IMG/VR virus record: IMGVR_UViG_2548876949_000016
Direction: 5' to 3' (one strand)
DNA from: a virus
Taxonomy: Duplodnaviria > Heunggongvirae > Uroviricota > Caudoviricetes
DNA length: 6,289 nt
Below the pieces are notes generated by a model. It searched no databases and was not told the origin of the DNA. It saw only the letters and a list, made by a program, of their open reading frames with translations. Position 1 is the stretch's first letter. Each line of letters begins with the position of its first letter. Of the stretch, positions 1 to 6,289 are shown in pieces. Made by a program: the position numbers and the translations under genes.

Positions 1-173
1 TATCTATGAACCAGCTACCTCGCCGTGCGCTTTCGCGTTATGGTCTGACTTTTCAGGGAAATATCCTTTCAGTAAACTGTCAGTGCCGGATGCTCACCCG
101 TGTCCGGCGCAAGCACTCCACCTCACCCGTGGAGAACTCCTTAATTACCAACCTTAGCTTCGTTGGTTAGCTA

Positions 174-392
174 TTAACGCGGGTATGTAATCATTCTGGC
201 AATGGTTAATGCCGCTGCTTTTTCCAGATTGGTGATATCCTGCTCCAGAGAGGACAGATTTTCAGCCTGCTTAGCCCTGACTTCATTAGCCCATTTCAGA
301 TCCTGCGCTGCATTAATTTTCTGGTGCATCCACTCATAAAGTTCATCATTGGTATAGTCTGGCGCGATGATGACGGGTTCTCGTTTCTGCAT
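174..392 (-). CDS. hypothetical small protein (72 aa), distal gene of the leftward early operon
   Basis: Intact ORF with ATG at 392..390 and a GAGGAA Shine-Dalgarno (complement of 398..403) 5 nt upstream; translation has plausible coiled-coil-like composition; no family recognised. Position is analogous to kil/accessory genes of pL operons (inference only). Confidence 0.5.
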   Translation of the reverse strand: MQKREPVIIAPDYTNDELYEWMHQKINAAQDLKWANEVRAKQAENLSSLEQDITNLEKAAALTIARMITYPR

Positions 393-421
393 ACTGATTC
401 CTCGCGGTGCTGTTTCGCTTA

Positions 422-550
422 TCAGCCATTAGATTTTGCCGAACTGGAAAGCACCTGTTTAAATTCGTTGAAGCTGTGAGCTTCTTCGCCTTCGGCAAGG
501 CCTTCGAAGTATTCTTCGTAAGCCTTTTCCATGATTGTGTCGAAATCCAT
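422..550 (-). CDS. small acidic protein (42 aa, MDFDTIMEKAYEEYFEGLAEGEEAHSFNEFKQVLSSSAKSNG), below the size cut-off of the supplied ORF track
   Basis: Hand translation of the minus strand: ATG at 550..548, stop TGA at 424..422. Start overlaps the stop of the upstream 78-aa ORF in a TGATATG arrangement and is preceded by an AGGTGG Shine-Dalgarno-like motif, suggesting translational coupling. Alternative reading: C-terminal half of one frameshifted gene spanning 422..788. Confidence 0.35.
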   Translation of the reverse strand: MDFDTIMEKAYEEYFEGLAEGEEAHSFNEFKQVLSSSAKSNG

Positions 551-551
551 A

Positions 552-788
552 TCACCCACCTGAATTTCTTTCCAGCCAGCGACGCGCTCCAGATTCGGTT
601 TTAAACGTTTTGCTTTTGGTATACGTCATTGCGGTGAACGTACCGTACTGGTTGGGGAACACGCCACATACCAGAGATTCGCTGTTGCCAAGATCGATAG
701 TATCCATGCTGACCTCATTTCCCCTTAACGCCGGGGTAGCGGAACAAAAACCTGCTGCATAGTTATTAAAGTTGAACCCTGCCGTCAT
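552..788 (-). CDS. hypothetical small protein (78 aa), first gene of the leftward early operon
   Basis: ORF with ATG at 788..786 and a GAGG motif about 9 nt upstream on the minus strand; lies immediately downstream (leftward) of the OL-like operator region; no family recognised. Its last ~20 codons overlap an alternative open frame, so the true 3' end is uncertain. Confidence 0.45.
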   Translation of the reverse strand: MTAGFNFNNYAAGFCSATPALRGNEVSMDTIDLGNSESLVCGVFPNQYGTFTAMTYTKSKTFKTESGARRWLERNSGG

Positions 789-893
789 GTTCTTACGCCT
801 CGGGCTGGCTACTTAACCCCTGACCACTGCCTGGTAACTCGAAGTATTGCCCTGCATTCTGTGGGGCGGGGTGGGTTGGTATGAAAAGAAGGA

Positions 894-930
894 TACCCAT
901 AGGTATTTAAAAAGTAAATACCCATGGGTA
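894..930. promoter_or_regulatory. OL-like operator pair (two 12-bp TACC-N4-GGTA palindromes) with presumed leftward early promoter
   Basis: tacccataggta at 894..905 and the perfect palindrome tacccatgggta at 919..930, 25 bp apart, in the 185-bp gap between the repressor 3' end and the leftward small genes. The same motif recurs three times in the repressor/cro intergenic region. Exact -35/-10 of the leftward promoter could not be assigned confidently. Confidence 0.45.
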
Positions 931-972
931 AATTTTTGCGGTGTCTTAACTGGTGACTAGTTGTTTGGTGAG

Positions 973-1392
973 CTATGATGCGTTTTGTGCTTTCTTTTTA
1001 CGGATTTCTTCGTAGATCATATTGTAATACTGTTTTTTCTCTTCAAGAGTTTTTAATAATTTATCCGCTTCACTTTCTGGCAGTTCGTCTAAGAGATCTA
1101 AAAAAATACGTTGTCGTGGCGTTAGAACCCTTGTTTCATAACTGGAGGCTGTGTTCGTTGATGATGAAACGATACCATCCATCCATCCCCGGGGTAACCC
1201 AAAGGACTCTTCGATAATCTCCACCATATCATCAGCGATCCGTTTTTTTCCCTTTTTCCCCTCTGGGTACAACATTCTTGATACATAAGAAGGCTCGCGC
1301 CCGATCTTTCTGGCCACGTTAACCGCTTTACCATCGCATTTCTCATCACGAATTTTGATGAGTTGCTGTCGTCTAAATTCATATTTGTCCAT
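973..1392 (-). CDS. CI-like prophage repressor (139 aa) with N-terminal helix-turn-helix and no LexA/S24 peptidase domain
   Basis: Divergent from the cro-like gene; N-terminal segment KAVNVARKIGREPSYVSRM looks like a classical HTH; AT-rich codon usage typical of immunity genes; C-terminal half is charged/coiled-coil-like with no Ser-Lys dyad or S24 fold signature; flanked by repeated operator palindromes. Confidence 0.75.
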   Translation of the reverse strand: MDKYEFRRQQLIKIRDEKCDGKAVNVARKIGREPSYVSRMLYPEGKKGKKRIADDMVEIIEESFGLPRGWMDGIVSSSTNTASSYETRVLTPRQRIFLDLLDELPESEADKLLKTLEEKKQYYNMIYEEIRKKKAQNAS

Positions 1393-1398
1393 AGGTAA

Positions 1399-1468
1399 AT
1401 AATAGATGCGATTACCGCAAGGTAAACAACCTGTGGGTATTGACTTTTGTTTACCTGTGGGTATTCTT
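1399..1468. promoter_or_regulatory. OR-like tripartite operator with divergent promoters (pRM-like leftward, pR-like rightward)
   Basis: Three operator copies: taccgcaaggta 1413..1424, aacctgtgggta 1428..1439, tacctgtgggta 1452..1463. Rightward promoter: -35 TTGACT 1440..1445, -10 TATTCT 1462..1467 (16-bp spacer; ATTCTT 1463..1468 with 17), overlapped by the 1452..1463 site, followed by SD AAGGAG 1482..1487 and ATG 1493. Leftward promoter candidate: -10 TATTAT (complement of 1399..1404) about 7 nt from the repressor ATG, with -35 overlapping the 1413..1424 site. Confidence 0.5.
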
Positions 1469-1492
1469 TGCTGTGTTTACTAAGGAGTAGCT

Positions 1493-1774
1493 ATGGAAGA
1501 ATTAAGAATATTTCTCAATTCTCTTTCGTCAGATGAACAGCGTATGTTTGCATGCGAGTGTGGTACCAGCATCGGTTATCTAAGAAAGGCATTGAGTAAA
1601 GGTCAAGTGTTAGGGGCATCGTTATGTGTCCTTATTGAGCGAGCCAGTAATGGTGAAGTTACACGTCAGCAACTAAGGCCTTTTGATTGGATGAATATTT
1701 GGCCCGAGCTGGAAGATACCAAAACGTTAACACAACCACTTTCTAGGAGCTTGATTCATGAAAATCAAGCATGA
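1493..1774 (+). CDS. Cro-like HTH regulator of the YdaS family (93 aa)
   Basis: First rightward gene after the operator/promoter region with strong SD AAGGAG; segment SLCVLIERASNGEVTRQQLRPFDW resembles the conserved core I recall for Rac YdaS-type Cro-like proteins; 3' end overlaps the next gene by 17 nt. Confidence 0.7.
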   Translation: MEELRIFLNSLSSDEQRMFACECGTSIGYLRKALSKGQVLGASLCVLIERASNGEVTRQQLRPFDWMNIWPELEDTKTLTQPLSRSLIHENQA

Positions 1775-2183
1775 ACACATCCGCATGGCGATGAATGCCT
1801 GGGCGCGTCCTGATGGCGAAAAAGTTCCAGCAGCTGGAATAACCCAGGCTTATTTTGAGTTGGGTATGACGTTCCCAGAACTGTATGACGACAGCCATCC
1901 GGAAGCCCTGGCTCGCAATACCCAGAAAATTTTCCGCTGGGTAGAGAAAGACACCCCTGATGCTGTTGAAAAAATGCAGGCTCTGTTACCGGCGATCGAA
2001 AAGGCGATGCCGCCTTTGCTGGTGGCCCGTATGCGCAGCCACAGTTCTGAATATTACCGTGAGATCGTCGAACGGAGGGATCGGCTGGTGAAGGATGTCG
2101 ATGATTTTGTTGCGTCAGCGGTTGTTTTGTATGACCAGATGAATCGCGGCGGCCCGGCAGGGAATGCTGTGGTGATGCACTAA
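1758..2183 (+). CDS. YdaT-like protein (141 aa); CII functional analogue / putative toxin-domain protein
   Basis: Position directly after the Cro-like gene as in Rac-type prophages; size (~140 aa); AGGAG SD 8 nt upstream of ATG 1758. Family assignment is from gene order and recalled similarity, not a search. Confidence 0.55.
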   Translation: MKIKHEHIRMAMNAWARPDGEKVPAAGITQAYFELGMTFPELYDDSHPEALARNTQKIFRWVEKDTPDAVEKMQALLPAIEKAMPPLLVARMRSHSSEYYREIVERRDRLVKDVDDFVASAVVLYDQMNRGGPAGNAVVMH

Positions 2184-2205
2184 AAGCACGGTGTTCGGGG
2201 GTTTT

Positions 2206-3168
2206 ATGAGCAGCAAGCTTCATGGTCTTGTCTGGGAAGGGTGCGCCTTCACCGGCATGATCTTATCCAGGGTGGCGGTTATGGCCCGTCTTGCAGACTA
2301 CAGCAATGACGAGGGCGTGTCATGGCCTGCCATTGAAACTATCCGGCGTCAGATCGGTGCAAGAAGTGAATCCACAGTGAAATCGGCTATTGCAGAACTG
2401 GCGAAAGAGGGCTGGCTGACGAAGGAAGAGCGTAAGGTCGGTGGGCGTAATGTAAGCAATATCTATCGGCTTAATGTGGAAAAACTCGAAGCAGCTGCGG
2501 CGGCGGCGCGTGAGTCATATAAACCGAAAAGAAAAATTAGCCCGGCAAAAAATGACCCGTTAACAGTTGACCCGTCAAATATTGACCCCTCAACGGTTGA
2601 CCCGTCAAATTTTGATGGATCAACTGTTGATAAAAAACTGCCGATTAGGGGGGCGATGATTGACCCCGATCCGTCAGTATTAAAACCTGATCCGTCAGAT
2701 AAAAGATCTTCTTGTCCGGACGCTTCGCAACCGGACCCGCAGACGGCTGAACAGGATTTTTTAACCCGACACCCTGACGCGGTTGTGTTCAGTGCGAAAA
2801 AACGCCAGTGGGGAAGTCAGGAAGATTTGGTGTGCGCACAGTGGATCTGGGGACGAATCGTGAGTCTTTACGAGCAGGCGGCCAGCTATGATGGCGAGAT
2901 CACTAGACCGAAAGAACCCAACTGGACAGCATGGGCCAATGACGTTCGCACAATGCGGATGCTGGATGGCAGAACTCACAGACAAATTTGTGAAATGTTT
3001 GGGCGTCTCCAGCGGGATTCGTTCTGGGTAAAAAACATCATGAGTCCGGCAAAACTCCGGGAAAAATGGGATGAACTGGTTATCCGCCTGGGGCGTTCGC
3101 CTGCGCAGCGTTGCGTGAATCACATTTCTGAACCGGACACTGAAATACCGCCGGGATTCAGGGGGTGA
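2206..3168 (+). CDS. phage replication initiation protein: N-terminal HTH origin-binding domain, repeat-rich linker, DnaT-like (primosomal protein 1) C-terminal domain
   Basis: ATG 2206 preceded by a GGGGGG SD (2196..2201); the track's GTG at 2191 is an alternative start. N-terminal region has HTH character (SWPAIETIRRQIGARSESTVKSAIAELAKEGWL). C-terminus ends SEPDTEIPPGFRG, matching my recollection of the E. coli DnaT C-terminus (SEPDSQIPPGFRG). Contains the iteron array and is immediately followed by a DnaC homologue. Confidence 0.7.
   Translation: MSSKLHGLVWEGCAFTGMILSRVAVMARLADYSNDEGVSWPAIETIRRQIGARSESTVKSAIAELAKEGWLTKEERKVGGRNVSNIYRLNVEKLEAAAAAARESYKPKRKISPAKNDPLTVDPSNIDPSTVDPSNFDGSTVDKKLPIRGAMIDPDPSVLKPDPSDKRSSCPDASQPDPQTAEQDFLTRHPDAVVFSAKKRQWGSQEDLVCAQWIWGRIVSLYEQAASYDGEITRPKEPNWTAWANDVRTMRMLDGRTHRQICEMFGRLQRDSFWVKNIMSPAKLREKWDELVIRLGRSPAQRCVNHISEPDTEIPPGFRG
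2551..2640. repeat. iteron array (putative prophage origin of replication) embedded in the initiator gene: six 15-bp units, four well conserved
   Basis: Units at 2551, 2566, 2581, 2596, 2611, 2626: aatgacccgttaaca / gttgacccgtcaaat / attgacccctcaacg / gttgacccgtcaaat / tttgatggatcaact / gttgataaaaaactg; units 2 and 4 are identical. A further ATTGACCCC copy at 2659..2667. Followed by AT-rich stretches and four GATC sites (2618, 2668, 2689, 2705). Confidence 0.55.
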
Positions 3169-3174
3169 CGTGTC

Positions 3175-3921
3175 ATGAAAAACATTGCGGCAGTTGGGGT
3201 TCTTGAACGTATTCGCAGACTTGCACCACAGGGGTCGGTTCCACCGTACCGGACGGTGGAGGAGTGGCGGGAATGGCAACTTGCTGAAGGACGAAAACGC
3301 AGCGAGGAGATTAACCGCCAGAATCGCCAGTTGCGGGTGGAAAAAATCCTGAATCGTTCGGGCATCCAGCCTCTGCACAGCAAATGCTCGTTTGCAAATT
3401 ATCAGGTGCAGAACGACGGGCAAAAATACGCGCTGAGCCAGGCCAAATCCATAGCTGACGAACTGATGACCGGGTGCACGAATTTTGTGTTCAGTGGTAA
3501 AACCGGCACCGGGAAAAATCACCTTGCAGCGGCGATGGGCAACCGGCTGATGGTGAAGGGGCGCAGCGTGATTATCGTCACCGTGTCTGACGTCATGAGC
3601 GTGTTGCATGACAGCTACGACAACGGCAAATCCGGGGAAAAATTTTTACAGGAGCTTTGCGGGGTTGATTTGCTGGTCCTGGATGAAATAGGCGTTCAGC
3701 GGGAGACGAAAAACGAGCAGGTGGTATTGCACCAGATAATTGATCGCCGGACAGCATCACTGTGCAGTGTCGGGATGTTAACAAACCTGAATCATGCCGC
3801 AATGAGTACGCTTCTTGGTGAGAGGATTATGGACCGCATGACCATGAACGGTGGTCGATGGGTGACGTTTAACTGGGATAGCTGGCGTCCAAATGTCAGC
3901 AATATGAGGGTTGTGAAGTAA
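3175..3921 (+). CDS. DnaC-like replicative helicase loader (AAA+ ATPase, 248 aa)
   Basis: Walker A FSGKTGTGKNHLAAA and Walker B LLVLDEIGVQ, plus overall collinearity with E. coli DnaC as I recall it (N-terminal MKN..., RSGIQPLH, MLTN, LLGERIMDRM, FNWDSWR). Start is 7 nt after the initiator stop, with a purine-rich SD. Confidence 0.85.
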   Translation: MKNIAAVGVLERIRRLAPQGSVPPYRTVEEWREWQLAEGRKRSEEINRQNRQLRVEKILNRSGIQPLHSKCSFANYQVQNDGQKYALSQAKSIADELMTGCTNFVFSGKTGTGKNHLAAAMGNRLMVKGRSVIIVTVSDVMSVLHDSYDNGKSGEKFLQELCGVDLLVLDEIGVQRETKNEQVVLHQIIDRRTASLCSVGMLTNLNHAAMSTLLGERIMDRMTMNGGRWVTFNWDSWRPNVSNMRVVK

Positions 3922-3942
3922 TTTTGTCCGGAGGAAATTTTA

Positions 3943-4713
3943 ATGGAAACCGTATCTGACGCACTGAAAGCACTGAAAAAAGCCTCTTCACATGTGGTGG
4001 CAGCTCGCCTTGGAATCAGTCGTGAAGAGGCTGTCAACGAGCTGTGGGAACTCAAAAGAAAAGGCGTCGTTGATAAAACTGGTCACACCTGGTTTCTGGC
4101 TGGCGAAGGTGAATCCCGGGTAACCGAAGAGCGGCCAGTAAAATCTGAAGCACAGGATATGCTGACCGGGGAGGTCGAACAAAAAGTTACCGCAGACATG
4201 ATGATTGAGTTTATCGGTCAGGATGGGGCTAAAACGTGTGAGGAACTGGCGGGTAAGTTCGGTGTCAGTACTCGCAAGGTTGCTTCCACGCTGGCGGTGG
4301 TAACCGCAACGGGGCGGCTGGCACGCGTTAATCAGAACGGTAAATTTCGTTACTGCATGCCGGGCGATAATTTACCAGCAGAGCCGAAAGCCGCGCTGGT
4401 AACGGAAAGTGATGGTAAGGCCTTTCCTCAGCCAGCAGGTGCTGCGTTACCAGTCCGGGAAGCCGCAACACAGGAAGAAATTAAAACAGAAACTGTGGCG
4501 GACATTGTGCAGCCGTTGCCATCGTTTACCGAAACGCAAGCAGATGAGCTGATTTTTCCGTCCCTTCGCAGGGCAAACCTGGCGCTGCGCAGGGCGAAAA
4601 GTGATGTTCAGAAGTGGGAGCGAGTCTGCGCCGCGCTGCGGGAGCTGAACAAGCACCGGGATATTGTTCGACAGATTACTGATTCTTCCCGCCGTGTTGT
4701 ATCGGAAAAGTGA
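3943..4713 (+). CDS. hypothetical protein (256 aa) with two tandem winged-helix-like modules, possibly DUF1627/YdaW-like
   Basis: GGAGGA SD 3930..3935, ATG 3943. Internal duplication visible in the translation: residues ~5-53 (VAARLGISREEAVNELWELKRKGVVDKTGHTWFL) and ~84-140 (CEELAGKFGVSTRKVASTLAVVTATGRLARVNQNGKFRYCM) both fit a winged-helix pattern; basic helical C-terminus. Follows the DnaC-like gene as ydaW does in Rac. Confidence 0.55.
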   Translation: METVSDALKALKKASSHVVAARLGISREEAVNELWELKRKGVVDKTGHTWFLAGEGESRVTEERPVKSEAQDMLTGEVEQKVTADMMIEFIGQDGAKTCEELAGKFGVSTRKVASTLAVVTATGRLARVNQNGKFRYCMPGDNLPAEPKAALVTESDGKAFPQPAGAALPVREAATQEEIKTETVADIVQPLPSFTETQADELIFPSLRRANLALRRAKSDVQKWERVCAALRELNKHRDIVRQITDSSRRVVSEK

Positions 4714-4728
4714 TTGCCGGAGGCGCTT

Positions 4729-5154
4729 ATGGCAAAAGTATTTACACAAGAAGAGCGGGAAAAAATTAAAGGGCAGGTTGTTGAACTTGTACGTCTGAGC
4801 GGTCGCGAGACGTTGCGGCAACTGGAAGCCAAGACAGGTGCGACAAGATATCTGATGAGTGTTCTCGCCAGAGAGCTGGTTGCCAGTGGCGATGTATACA
4901 ACTCTGGTTACGGGTTATTCCCGTCTGAACAGGCGCGTAAGGACTGGCAAAATGCTCGCAAAAAACTCTCAAGGGCAAAGGTGAAGAAACCTGCAGTGGT
5001 TGATCCGGACCTTATCTGGTCGTTACCAGACGGCGAAATACGCCGCTACGACAGGCGCCTGAATATAATCTGTCGCGAGTGCCGGAAGAGCGAAGCTATG
5101 CAGCGTGTACTGGCATTTTATCAAGGAAATGTTAGGTATTTTAGACGTTACTAG
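4729..5154 (+). CDS. hypothetical protein (141 aa from ATG 4729) with one winged-helix-like module and a basic Cys-containing C-terminus
   Basis: GGAGG SD 4719..4723, 5 nt before ATG 4729; the track's 4714 start is an in-frame TTG just after the upstream stop. Segment VVELVRLSGRETLRQLEAKTGATRYLMSVLARELVASGDV has winged-helix character; no family recognised. Confidence 0.5.
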   Translation: MAKVFTQEEREKIKGQVVELVRLSGRETLRQLEAKTGATRYLMSVLARELVASGDVYNSGYGLFPSEQARKDWQNARKKLSRAKVKKPAVVDPDLIWSLPDGEIRRYDRRLNIICRECRKSEAMQRVLAFYQGNVRYFRRY

Positions 5155-5307
5155 ATTAAAGAGCATTAGTTCAGATGTGAATTGACATTTTCATGGCGCA
5201 GGGTAGAGCCAGCGTGGTTGTCCGCTTTGCGTCAAAACCAGATATTACCAGATTTAGACATATATTCCCGATAGCCCTGCTCTGATGCTACACTCTGTGC
5301 TATTTTC

Positions 5308-5994
5308 ATGACCCCAATAAAAATATTTATGACTATTGCTGATTTCAAACGGCCTAAATTGGAGCTCCCAAACGGGGCAAACAAACTACTACTGCACTCT
5401 TGCTGTGCTCCATGTTCCGGTGAAGTGATGGAGGCGCTTCAGGCCTCGGGAATCGACTACACCATCTTTTTCTACAACCCGAACATTCATCCTCAGAAAG
5501 AGTATTTAATTCGTAAGGATGAAAATATTCGCTTTGCTGAACAACACGGCGTGCCGTTTATCGATGCTGATTACGACACCGACAACTGGTTTGAACGTGC
5601 CAAAGGAATGGAATGGGAGCCTGAGAGGGGGATCCGTTGTACCATGTGTTTTGACATGCGTTTTGAGCGGACAGCGTTGTACGCTGCTGAAAATGGTTTC
5701 AGTGTGATCAGCAGTTCACTGGGCATTTCACGCTGGAAAAATATGCAGCAGGTTAACGAGTGTGGGCGGCGAGCTGTTGCGCATTATCCGGGTATGGTGT
5801 ACTGGGATTATAACTGGCGCAAGCAGGGCGGCTCGTCCCGTATGATTGAAATCAGCAAGCGCGAAAAATTCTATCAGCAGGAATATTGTGGCTGTGTGTA
5901 TTCTCTGCGCGATACCAATCTACACCGCAAATCTCAGGGACGCCCTCTTATCAAAATTGGCCAACTCCACTACGGAAAAGAAGAGAAGGAGTGA
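5308..5994 (+). CDS. queH: QueH-like epoxyqueuosine reductase (DUF208 family, 228 aa), prophage cargo
   Basis: Three cysteine motifs that I recall as the QueH/DUF208 signature: [11 protein letters not shown] (nt ~5389..5421), [10 protein letters not shown] (~5638..5667) and EYCGCVYS (~5881..5904). Separated from the upstream gene by a 153-bp gap containing TTGACA at 5182..5187. No convincing Shine-Dalgarno before ATG 5308 or the alternative ATG 5329, so the start is uncertain. Confidence 0.6.
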
Positions 5995-6289
5995 TTTTAT
6001 GGATCACCTTTCTGATTGATTTCATATTGGCGAGGTGACGTGAGTTAAGTAGAATGGCTGCGGGTGCTTGAGGCTATCTGTCTCAGGCATGAACACTGAA
6101 AGGCAGATAGAGAAAAGCCCCAGTTAACATTTCGCGTCCTGCAAGACGCTTAACATTAATCTGAGGCCCAATCTATGTCTCACAAATGTAGGTTAGCCTC
6201 TTACGTGCCGAAAGGCAAGGGGAAGCAGGCTATTGTTAACACCAAGCTGTAATGTCCCCTTTGAACCATTCTAAAATGTCCCCAGACAA

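Follow-up and report, generated by a model that had tools for sequence, protein, structure and literature searches.

A short lambdoid prophage repressor without a self-cleavage domain, putatively recombined from S24-type and DicA-type parts, and its probable SOS-independent derepression

In the Gifsy prophages, mitomycin C treatment leaves the 136-aa repressors uncleaved, and antirepressors inactivate them (Lemire et al. 2011; PMC3121763). According to that study, the antirepressors bind their repressors (GfoR apparently as a dimer, in an A2B2 complex) and can work in trans between prophages, and induction requires cleavage of LexA, which represses an operon of dinI, the antirepressor gene and irsA located 1.3 kb downstream of the replication genes; DicA and RacR are named there as members of the same repressor group. 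The Qin-encoded protein Rem derepresses the promoter controlled by DicA 165-fold, an effect that mitomycin C does not have, and Rem itself responds to a signal that is not known; DicA and DicC together act as a bistable switch with spontaneous flips that depend on neither RecA nor Rem (Ragunathan et al. 2023; PMC10448788). In Escherichia coli O157 Sakai, a strain with 18 prophages, Sp6, Sp9 and Sp10 are spontaneously inducible and not mitomycin-inducible, a behavior that Asadulghani et al. (2009; PMC2669165) tie to a peptidase motif missing from the repressors. Here we describe a gene for a 139-aa protein in a 6,289-nucleotide stretch of Caudoviricetes DNA (IMG/VR record IMGVR_UViG_2548876949_000016; this whole stretch is called the window below). 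Its position, its divergent cro-like neighbor, its operators and the co-travel of those operators with the protein's N-terminal domain suggest that it serves a lambdoid E. coli prophage as its cI-type maintenance repressor, occupying the cI position. Taken as a whole, the reading that we consider probable, though with appreciable room for doubt, is that of a short, non-self-cleaving repressor of cI type for which derepression independent of the SOS response is the most likely route.

The protein has no self-cleavage domain, no cleavage site and no catalytic motif. A Pfam scan returned no family at E<=1, hence neither Peptidase_S24 (PF00717) nor a helix-turn-helix (HTH) family, in a test that gave S24-type relatives E values of 1e-17 to 5e-23 for PF00717. 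When a profile of the C-terminal module was compared by hhalign with an alignment of S24-bearing relatives, the probability was 0.1%. A motif check found no Ala-Gly, no Cys-Gly and no GDSM serine motif in the repressor sequence, and G..SM and the catalytic lysine are invariant across the aligned S24 relatives. Only about 50 residues follow the linker of the repressor, and the Pfam S24 profile has 116 positions and covers about 100-125 residues in S24-type relatives. An AlphaFold2 model built on 15 homologues, with a mean predicted local distance difference test score (pLDDT) of 81.5, contains six helices (residues 3-18, 23-30, 34-41, 54-63, 92-103 and 106-138) and zero strands; the beta-rich C-terminal fold of at least ~110 residues that is expected of S24 repressors is therefore absent from the model, which has helices only. 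Pfam, hhalign, the motif check and AlphaFold2 thus all agree with an initial annotation of this DNA, made from its letters, in which the 139-aa repressor had been described as having no S24 region, and the all-helical model and the hhalign probability likewise speak against a cryptic S24-like fold.

Because the repressor is predicted to be unable to cleave itself, activated RecA would not inactivate it directly, and the proposal in the initial annotation that induction probably does not proceed by direct RecA-stimulated cleavage is supported by all of the computational tests and by the precedents of Gifsy, DicA and Sp10. The same annotation had called the C-terminal half charged and helical, which holds for residues 89-139 (39% charged, carrying helices 92-103 and 106-138) and fails for residues 73-88 (GIVSSSTNTASSYETR), an uncharged Ser/Thr linker modeled at low confidence, with pLDDT < 50 at residues 77-87. 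Its N-terminal HTH, although invisible to Pfam, is backed by homology, by AlphaFold2, which places it in helices 23-30 and 34-41 of the N-terminal domain, and by Foldseek, which matched XRE/Cro-CI proteins such as C.BclI (70 columns, root-mean-square deviation 2.5 A, prob 0.99).

The reading frame of the gene runs on the minus strand from an ATG at 1392 to a TAG at 973-975, and the start codon appears sound because all homologues open with the same residues, MDKYE. The product is identical to WP_000362153.1, which RefSeq labels 'hypothetical protein'. An alternative-frame open reading frame at 1122-1382 on the minus strand is the called N-terminus of frameshifted repressor copies in public databases (P0010, P0019), and some genomes thus carry inactivated copies of the repressor.

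By virtue of its C-terminal module, the protein appears to belong to the short non-cleavable lambdoid class represented by DicA, Sp10 CI and the Gifsy repressors. It has three characteristics of this class, namely a length of ~130-160 aa with an HTH, a two-helix L-P-x-S-E module, and the cI position together with dyad operators. The motif of the module reads L-x-P-R-x4-L-x-L-(F/L)-x2-L-P-x-S-E. In NCBIfam, residues 86-136 match positions 81-131 of the DicA model at a sub-threshold E value of 1.9e-5, and the 24.5 bits obtained for PRK09706 'transcriptional repressor DicA', against a curated cutoff of 101, do not place the protein in that family over its full length. BLASTP aligns residues 89-139 with DicA residues 84-129 (33% identity over 46 residues, E 2e-7), and over residues 88-139 the identity to the C-terminal ends of the phage Tritos and Sakai Sp10 repressors, both of 139 aa, is ~75%. 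When 1.8 billion cluster representatives were searched exhaustively by phmmer with residues 80-139 (E<=1e-3), 48 were recovered that carry the module, always at the C-terminus and mostly in proteins of 120-170 aa. Pfam HTH_3 was present in 33 of the 39 module proteins scanned (36 phmmer hits, DicA, Tritos CI and the query), and S24 in none of the 39. Within the module, P105 is invariant, and L100, L104, L116 and K119 hardly vary. The PDB, searched by sequence and by profile with the C-terminal module, gave no significant match. Throughout the family the C-terminal tails are basic (..RKKKAQNAS, ..KKRKKKAG), and in the repressor the tail lies at 976-1000 on the minus strand. The C-terminal helices probably hold a putative repressor dimer together, a role suggested by the dyad symmetry of the operators and by the dimeric behavior of GfoR.

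The N-terminal domain has a different set of relatives. Over residues 1-72, identity to the N-termini of many PF00717-bearing proteins of 219-242 aa is 65-82%, and PF00717 is present in 79 of the best 120 clusters. Its helix 3, the recognition helix REPSYVSRMLY, is invariant in six aligned sequences, and similarity to the S24 repressors stops at a conserved junction, LPRGWMDG. Beyond this junction the CI protein of phage mEp043 (228 aa, sharing the N-terminal domain, S24 E 1.4e-17) and other LexA-family (PF00717) repressors of ~220-240 aa in Enterobacterales continue with an S24 domain, whereas the window protein continues with the DicA-type module. Sequence comparison thus suggests a recombinant in which an S24-type DNA-binding domain has been joined to a DicA-type tail. 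A module swap is favored over truncation of an S24 repressor because full-length homologues of 135-140 aa, from Salmonella, Serratia, Yersinia and one metagenome, retain the C-terminal module at 53-85% identity.

The putative operators follow the N-terminal domain. Allowing one mismatch or none, the 12-bp palindrome TACC-N4-GGTA occurs seven times in the window, compared with 1.25 expected, a count reached in 0 of 200 shuffles, and five of the seven copies surround the repressor gene. In mEp043 there are three such sites in the right operator region (OR) and two, 25 bp apart, in the left (OL), and its operators match those of the window in consensus, number, spacing and promoter geometry. The loci of Salmonella, Yersinia and Serratia with genes for short full-length orthologues show the same motif and layout. 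In contrast, the locus of phage Tritos, whose repressor has another N-terminal domain, contains no TACC-N4-GGTA operators, and the immunity specificity of Tritos should accordingly differ. Since the motif is present at the loci that share the domain and absent from Tritos, the operator appears to travel with the N-terminal domain, and this co-travel is the best available evidence for the assignment.

The arrangement of promoters around these sites (Table 1) resembles that of a lambdoid immunity region. At the rightward promoter (PR-like), one operator abuts the promoter and another overlaps the -10 element. At the promoter for repressor maintenance (PRM-like), the -35 element overlaps the operator at 1413-1424, and the repressor mRNA is probably leaderless, as is that of lambda cI, because the -10 element ends 6 nt ahead of the repressor ATG and there is no Shine-Dalgarno sequence. 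The leftward promoter (PL-like) has 8/12 matches, which is below the promoter-scan threshold, and its geometry relative to the left operator pair is that of PR and that of the annotated PL of mEp043 with its two operators. The OL pair also constitutes a 37-bp inverted repeat (894-930) that on the minus strand also scores as a terminator-like hairpin with a T-run, ~40 bp past the repressor stop codon, and this element may serve both as the cI terminator and as the PL operator pair.

Table 1. Positions in the window of the repressor gene, its protein domains, the surrounding regulatory sites and the adjacent genes
Feature	Position	Strand	Basis
Repressor gene	973..1392	-	ORF (open reading frame) list; PHROG 5736 'transcriptional regulator', E 6e-70, full length
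N-terminal DNA-binding domain, aa 1-72, four helices, HTH aa 23-41	1177..1392	-	AlphaFold2, Foldseek, homology
Ser/Thr-rich flexible linker, aa 73-90, no Ala-Gly cleavage site	1123..1176	-	pLDDT, composition, motif check
Two-helix C-terminal module, aa 91-139, DicA / Sp10-CI type	976..1122	-	NCBIfam, BLASTP, phmmer
OR-like region, putative operators TACC-N4-GGTA	1413-1424, 1428-1439 (one mismatch), 1452-1463		Between repressor and cro-like gene
OL-like putative operator pair	894-905, 919-930		25 bp apart, just downstream of repressor gene
PR-like promoter of cro-like gene, -35 TTGACT, 16-nt spacer, -10 TATTCT	1440..1467	+	Promoter scan, 9/12
PRM-like promoter of repressor, -35 TTTACC 1426-1421, -10 TATTAT 1404-1399	1399..1426	-	Promoter scan
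PL-like promoter of ydfA/ydfB/ydfC-type leftward operon, -35 TTTACT 918-913, 17-nt spacer, -10 TATCCT 895-890	890..918	-	Sequence reading
cro-like (YdaS-type) gene, divergent from repressor	1493..1774	+	PF15943 E 9e-6; phrog_35 E 5e-23
YdaT / CII-like regulator gene	1758..2183	+	PF06254 E 2.6e-9; phrog_163 'CII-like transcriptional activator' E 2e-47
Leftward operon gene 1, DUF1391, YdfA/YdaF-like	552..788	-	PF07151 E 1e-25; Qin synteny

The cro-like product shows partial similarity to Rac YdaS, and the YdaT-like product is 31% identical to Rac YdaT. The two genes overlap by 17 nt (1758-1774), which suggests that their translation is coupled. They are followed by O-like and DnaC-like replication genes; the O-like protein (2191-3168, plus strand) contains a short tandem peptide repeat, DPLTVDPSNIDPSTVDPSNFDGSTVD, around aa 133-155, between its N- and C-terminal parts. 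On the other side of the repressor, the order of the leftward genes (DUF1391/ydfA, ydfB-like, ydfC) matches that of dicA-ydfA-ydfB-ydfC-dicF-dicB in Qin.

Among the known systems, DicA of Qin in K-12 (135 aa) resembles the window protein in size, in its combination of an HTH with a short helical C-terminal module that is homologous in the two proteins, and in its place next to a cro-like gene that diverges from it, upstream of a ydfA-ydfB-ydfC-dicF operon. It likewise has no Ala-Gly site, and it is not mitomycin-inducible (PMC10448788). However, the N-terminal domains of the two are unrelated in sequence, that of DicA matching Pfam HTH_3 and that of the window protein matching no Pfam family. 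The repressors of Sp10 (ECs_1941) and Tritos, both of 139 aa, share the closely similar module and the same genomic position, yet have another N-terminal HTH (Pfam HTH_3). Of the other Sakai repressors, that of Sp9 is DicA-like and that of Sp6 is of RacR type by size; in the Sakai regions examined, the exact repressor of the window was not found. The repressors of Gifsy-1, -2 and -3 of Salmonella (GfoR, GtgR/GftR and GfhR) are similarly short and devoid of a cleavage motif, and the C-terminus of the Gifsy-1 repressor weakly matches L-x-L-F-x2-L-P-E, a similarity to the module that is marginal in pairwise comparison (E 1e-3).

RacR of the Rac prophage is also a short repressor beside ydaS-like and ydaT-like genes, and the initial annotation had likened the window protein to it. 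The likeness holds for this genomic niche and does not extend to sequence, as BLASTP found no detectable similarity to RacR (b1356; best E = 2.3); the relative that can be named is DicA, through the C-terminal module only. SinR of Bacillus subtilis, which combines an XRE-type HTH with a short helical multimerization hook and serves in a different biology, offers an analogy only. The hook of SinR is the target of a small protein antagonist. The SinR/SinI structure 1B0N was among the Foldseek matches at a non-significant E of 0.63 and with no sequence relationship, and nothing emerged when the module and Rem were compared for mimicry of the SinR/SinI kind.

Over its positions 1-6233 the window matches, at 100% identity, a prophage that two bovine E. 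coli genomes carry between potB and potC. One of these genomes, strain F2_407_2_2, was used as the reference for the surroundings of the window. This prophage of ~46 kb looks complete, with int, xis, exo, Q, lysis, head and tail genes, and carries the type III effector genes NleG and EspW. Of 5,426 complete E. coli genomes, 813 contain the stretch 900-2200, with the repressor, cro-like and ydaT-like genes, at >=80% coverage, and at least 20 have it at 100% identity, including O157:H7, O145:H28 and O55:H7 strains. The identical immunity region is sometimes found at another integration site, for example ttcA in O55:H7 RM12579. The RM12579 prophage (L003) harbors a pair of HTH and ImmA/IrrE metallopeptidase genes and a gene with an AntA-type 'antirepressor N-terminal domain' (26394-27232 and 34974-35543), all of which are absent from the prophage matching the window.

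Just left of the window span in the matching prophage, ydfC is followed by the DicF small RNA (Rfam, 74 bits), a dicB pseudogene and kil (L004, 19379-19831), and the repressor would therefore control a dicBF-type operon that inhibits cell division. Given a matching prophage that looks intact and a leftward operon that leads there to DicF and Kil, a lysogen would probably not survive loss of the repressor, whether or not YdaT is toxic. The initial annotation had made essentiality conditional on a toxic YdaT-like product. Toxicity is disputed, the CP-933P homologue of YdaT having been found to be non-toxic and CII-like, with YdaS and YdaT as the equivalents of Cro and CII (Jurenas et al. 2021; PMC8630535), and the case for an essential repressor passes instead to DicF and Kil.

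Toward the right end of the window, a complete gene for QueH (epoxyqueuosine reductase; 5308-5994, plus strand, Pfam E 1e-65) forms cargo in the early-right region, between a DUF977 gene and hok/sok. The latter is an addiction module at the right edge, in which the sok antisense RNA (Rfam RF01794, 120 bits) is accompanied by the beginning of hokD (6062-6237, plus strand), and it extends beyond the window end.

If induction does not proceed through cleavage, another trigger is needed, and the initial annotation had suggested looking for a LexA-controlled antirepressor elsewhere in the prophage. We scanned for LexA boxes (CTGT-N8-ACAG with an AT-rich center) in the window, the matching prophage (L004 and L005), the O55:H7 prophage (L003), the Salmonella, Yersinia and Serratia loci (L009-L012) and Sakai Sp10 (L013), and no credible box was found in any of them, including the whole of the ~46-kb matching prophage. 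The same scan recovered the dinI box of Gifsy-1, CACTGTATATAAACACAGTA, as a positive control. Within 10 kb of the Salmonella, Yersinia and Serratia orthologues there was no LexA box and no homologue of DinI or GfoA. Searches of the matching prophage by tblastn with Rem, DinI, IrsA, two Ant-type proteins and the Gifsy-1 gene following dinI (STM2621.1n, taken as the antirepressor gene) found nothing, such that the LexA-controlled antirepressor did not materialize there and no counterpart was found of the module of LexA box, dinI and antirepressor carried by Gifsy prophages. A Rem homologue (71% identity) is present in Sp9, where the repressor is DicA-like, but the slot between hokD and DUF968 that holds rem in Qin and Sp9 contains no Rem-like open reading frame in the matching prophage. 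A 92-aa gene in this slot (phrog_1212) was considered as a specific antirepressor and rejected, as it is unrelated to Rem and occurs also in Qin, Sp6, Sp9 and Gifsy-1 regardless of immunity type; it is a generic nin-region gene present with every immunity type examined.

We propose that the repressor would bind the TACC-N4-GGTA palindromes as a dimer, shut off both the rightward cro/ydaT/replication operon (PR) and the leftward ydfABC and dicF/kil-type operon (PL), and regulate its own PRM transcript. Derepression would then arise independently of SOS through low-frequency spontaneous flipping of the repressor/Cro switch, possibly with a protein antagonist. Such switching is favored because the LexA and antirepressor searches were negative and because of the behavior of Sp10 and of DicA/DicC. 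Several points weigh against this proposal. The Gifsy prophages, of the same class, are SOS-inducible via LexA-controlled antirepressors that act in trans (PMC3121763); Sp10 shares the C-terminal module alone with the window protein, not the DNA-binding domain; the LexA consensus used in the scan is simple, and a degenerate box could escape it; and C-terminal dimerization draws solely on operator symmetry and GfoR, with no match to a solved structure.

The alternatives to spontaneous switching are, by falling weight, an antirepressor of the Rem kind, a trans-acting antirepressor under LexA control, a host protease, and a decayed S24 repressor. A small non-SOS antirepressor, unrecognizable by sequence, might release the repressor from DNA in response to some other signal, as Rem does for DicA, and antirepressors are indeed small and fast-diverging; moreover, the structure that the whole model matches best is the Rep chain of a Rep-Ant complex from a Salmonella temperate phage (5D50, E 3e-3). 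This match is weak, however (TM 0.46), no Rem homologue was found, and the conserved gene in the slot of rem is not immunity-specific, which leaves this alternative unlikely, if worth keeping in view. We regard as rather unlikely an indirect dependence on SOS through a small LexA-repressed antirepressor encoded by this or another prophage of the polylysogenic host. This arrangement is established for Gifsy-1, -2 and -3, including action in trans, the Gifsy-1 repressor weakly matches the same C-terminal motif, and the hosts of this immunity region include O157, O145 and O55 strains, the O157 Sakai strain having 18 prophages (PMC2669165). Nevertheless, the LexA, DinI and GfoA searches of the matching prophage, the O55:H7 prophage and the orthologous loci were negative while the control was found, and Sp10, which has the same C-terminal module, is not mitomycin-inducible even amid 18 prophages.

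Degradation under stress by ClpXP or Lon, through recognition of the basic tail (..RKKKAQNAS) or the linker, could also trigger induction. The basic character of the tail is consistent throughout the family, and we take it to be reminiscent of the ClpX recognition motif (C-motif-2) of MuA, but this resemblance is weak and the tail residues vary across the family, and a role for a host protease thus seems improbable. A decayed S24 repressor or cryptic self-cleavage is close to refuted. The N-terminal identity to S24 repressors and the existence of frameshifted copies (P0010, P0019) would accord with decay, whereas the C-terminal 50 residues form a distinct, all-helical module, unrelated to S24, that is shared with DicA, the Sp10 repressor and the 48 cluster representatives and is conserved across genera, and the immunity stretch itself is widespread in E. 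coli and invariant in many of these genomes. Spontaneous, SOS-independent switching accordingly remains the explanation that we prefer.

The class of short repressors, its missing peptidase motif and the consequences for induction have been in print since 2009-2011, and the conceptual gain from this locus is modest; what is new is that a protein labeled 'hypothetical protein', with an HTH missed by Pfam, is a member. Slightly beyond the published work consulted is the suggestion that one DNA-binding domain, with its operators, is combined either with an S24 domain, as in mEp043 and many enterobacterial prophages, or with a DicA-type tail, as here. This module swap predicts cross-immunity between SOS-inducible and SOS-blind phages. 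It is possible, although we would put it forward only tentatively, that the DNA-binding module and its operators circulate in Enterobacterales in S24-fused and DicA-tailed forms, with the short form induced without a LexA-linked antirepressor. If this is true, the short type would be induced by purely stochastic flipping between repressor and Cro or by some other trigger. Should the two types prove truly homoimmune, S24-type phages of the same specificity, whether incoming or co-resident, would face dominant, DNA-damage-proof immunity from a resident prophage of the short type. The pair formed with mEp043, in which the same DNA-binding domain and operators are combined with an S24 or a DicA-type C-terminus, would provide a natural system for studying the role of this module in induction. 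Finally, a non-cleavable repressor predicts that the prophage and its cargo would not be mobilized by SOS-inducing antibiotics in the way that Shiga toxin (Stx) phages are.

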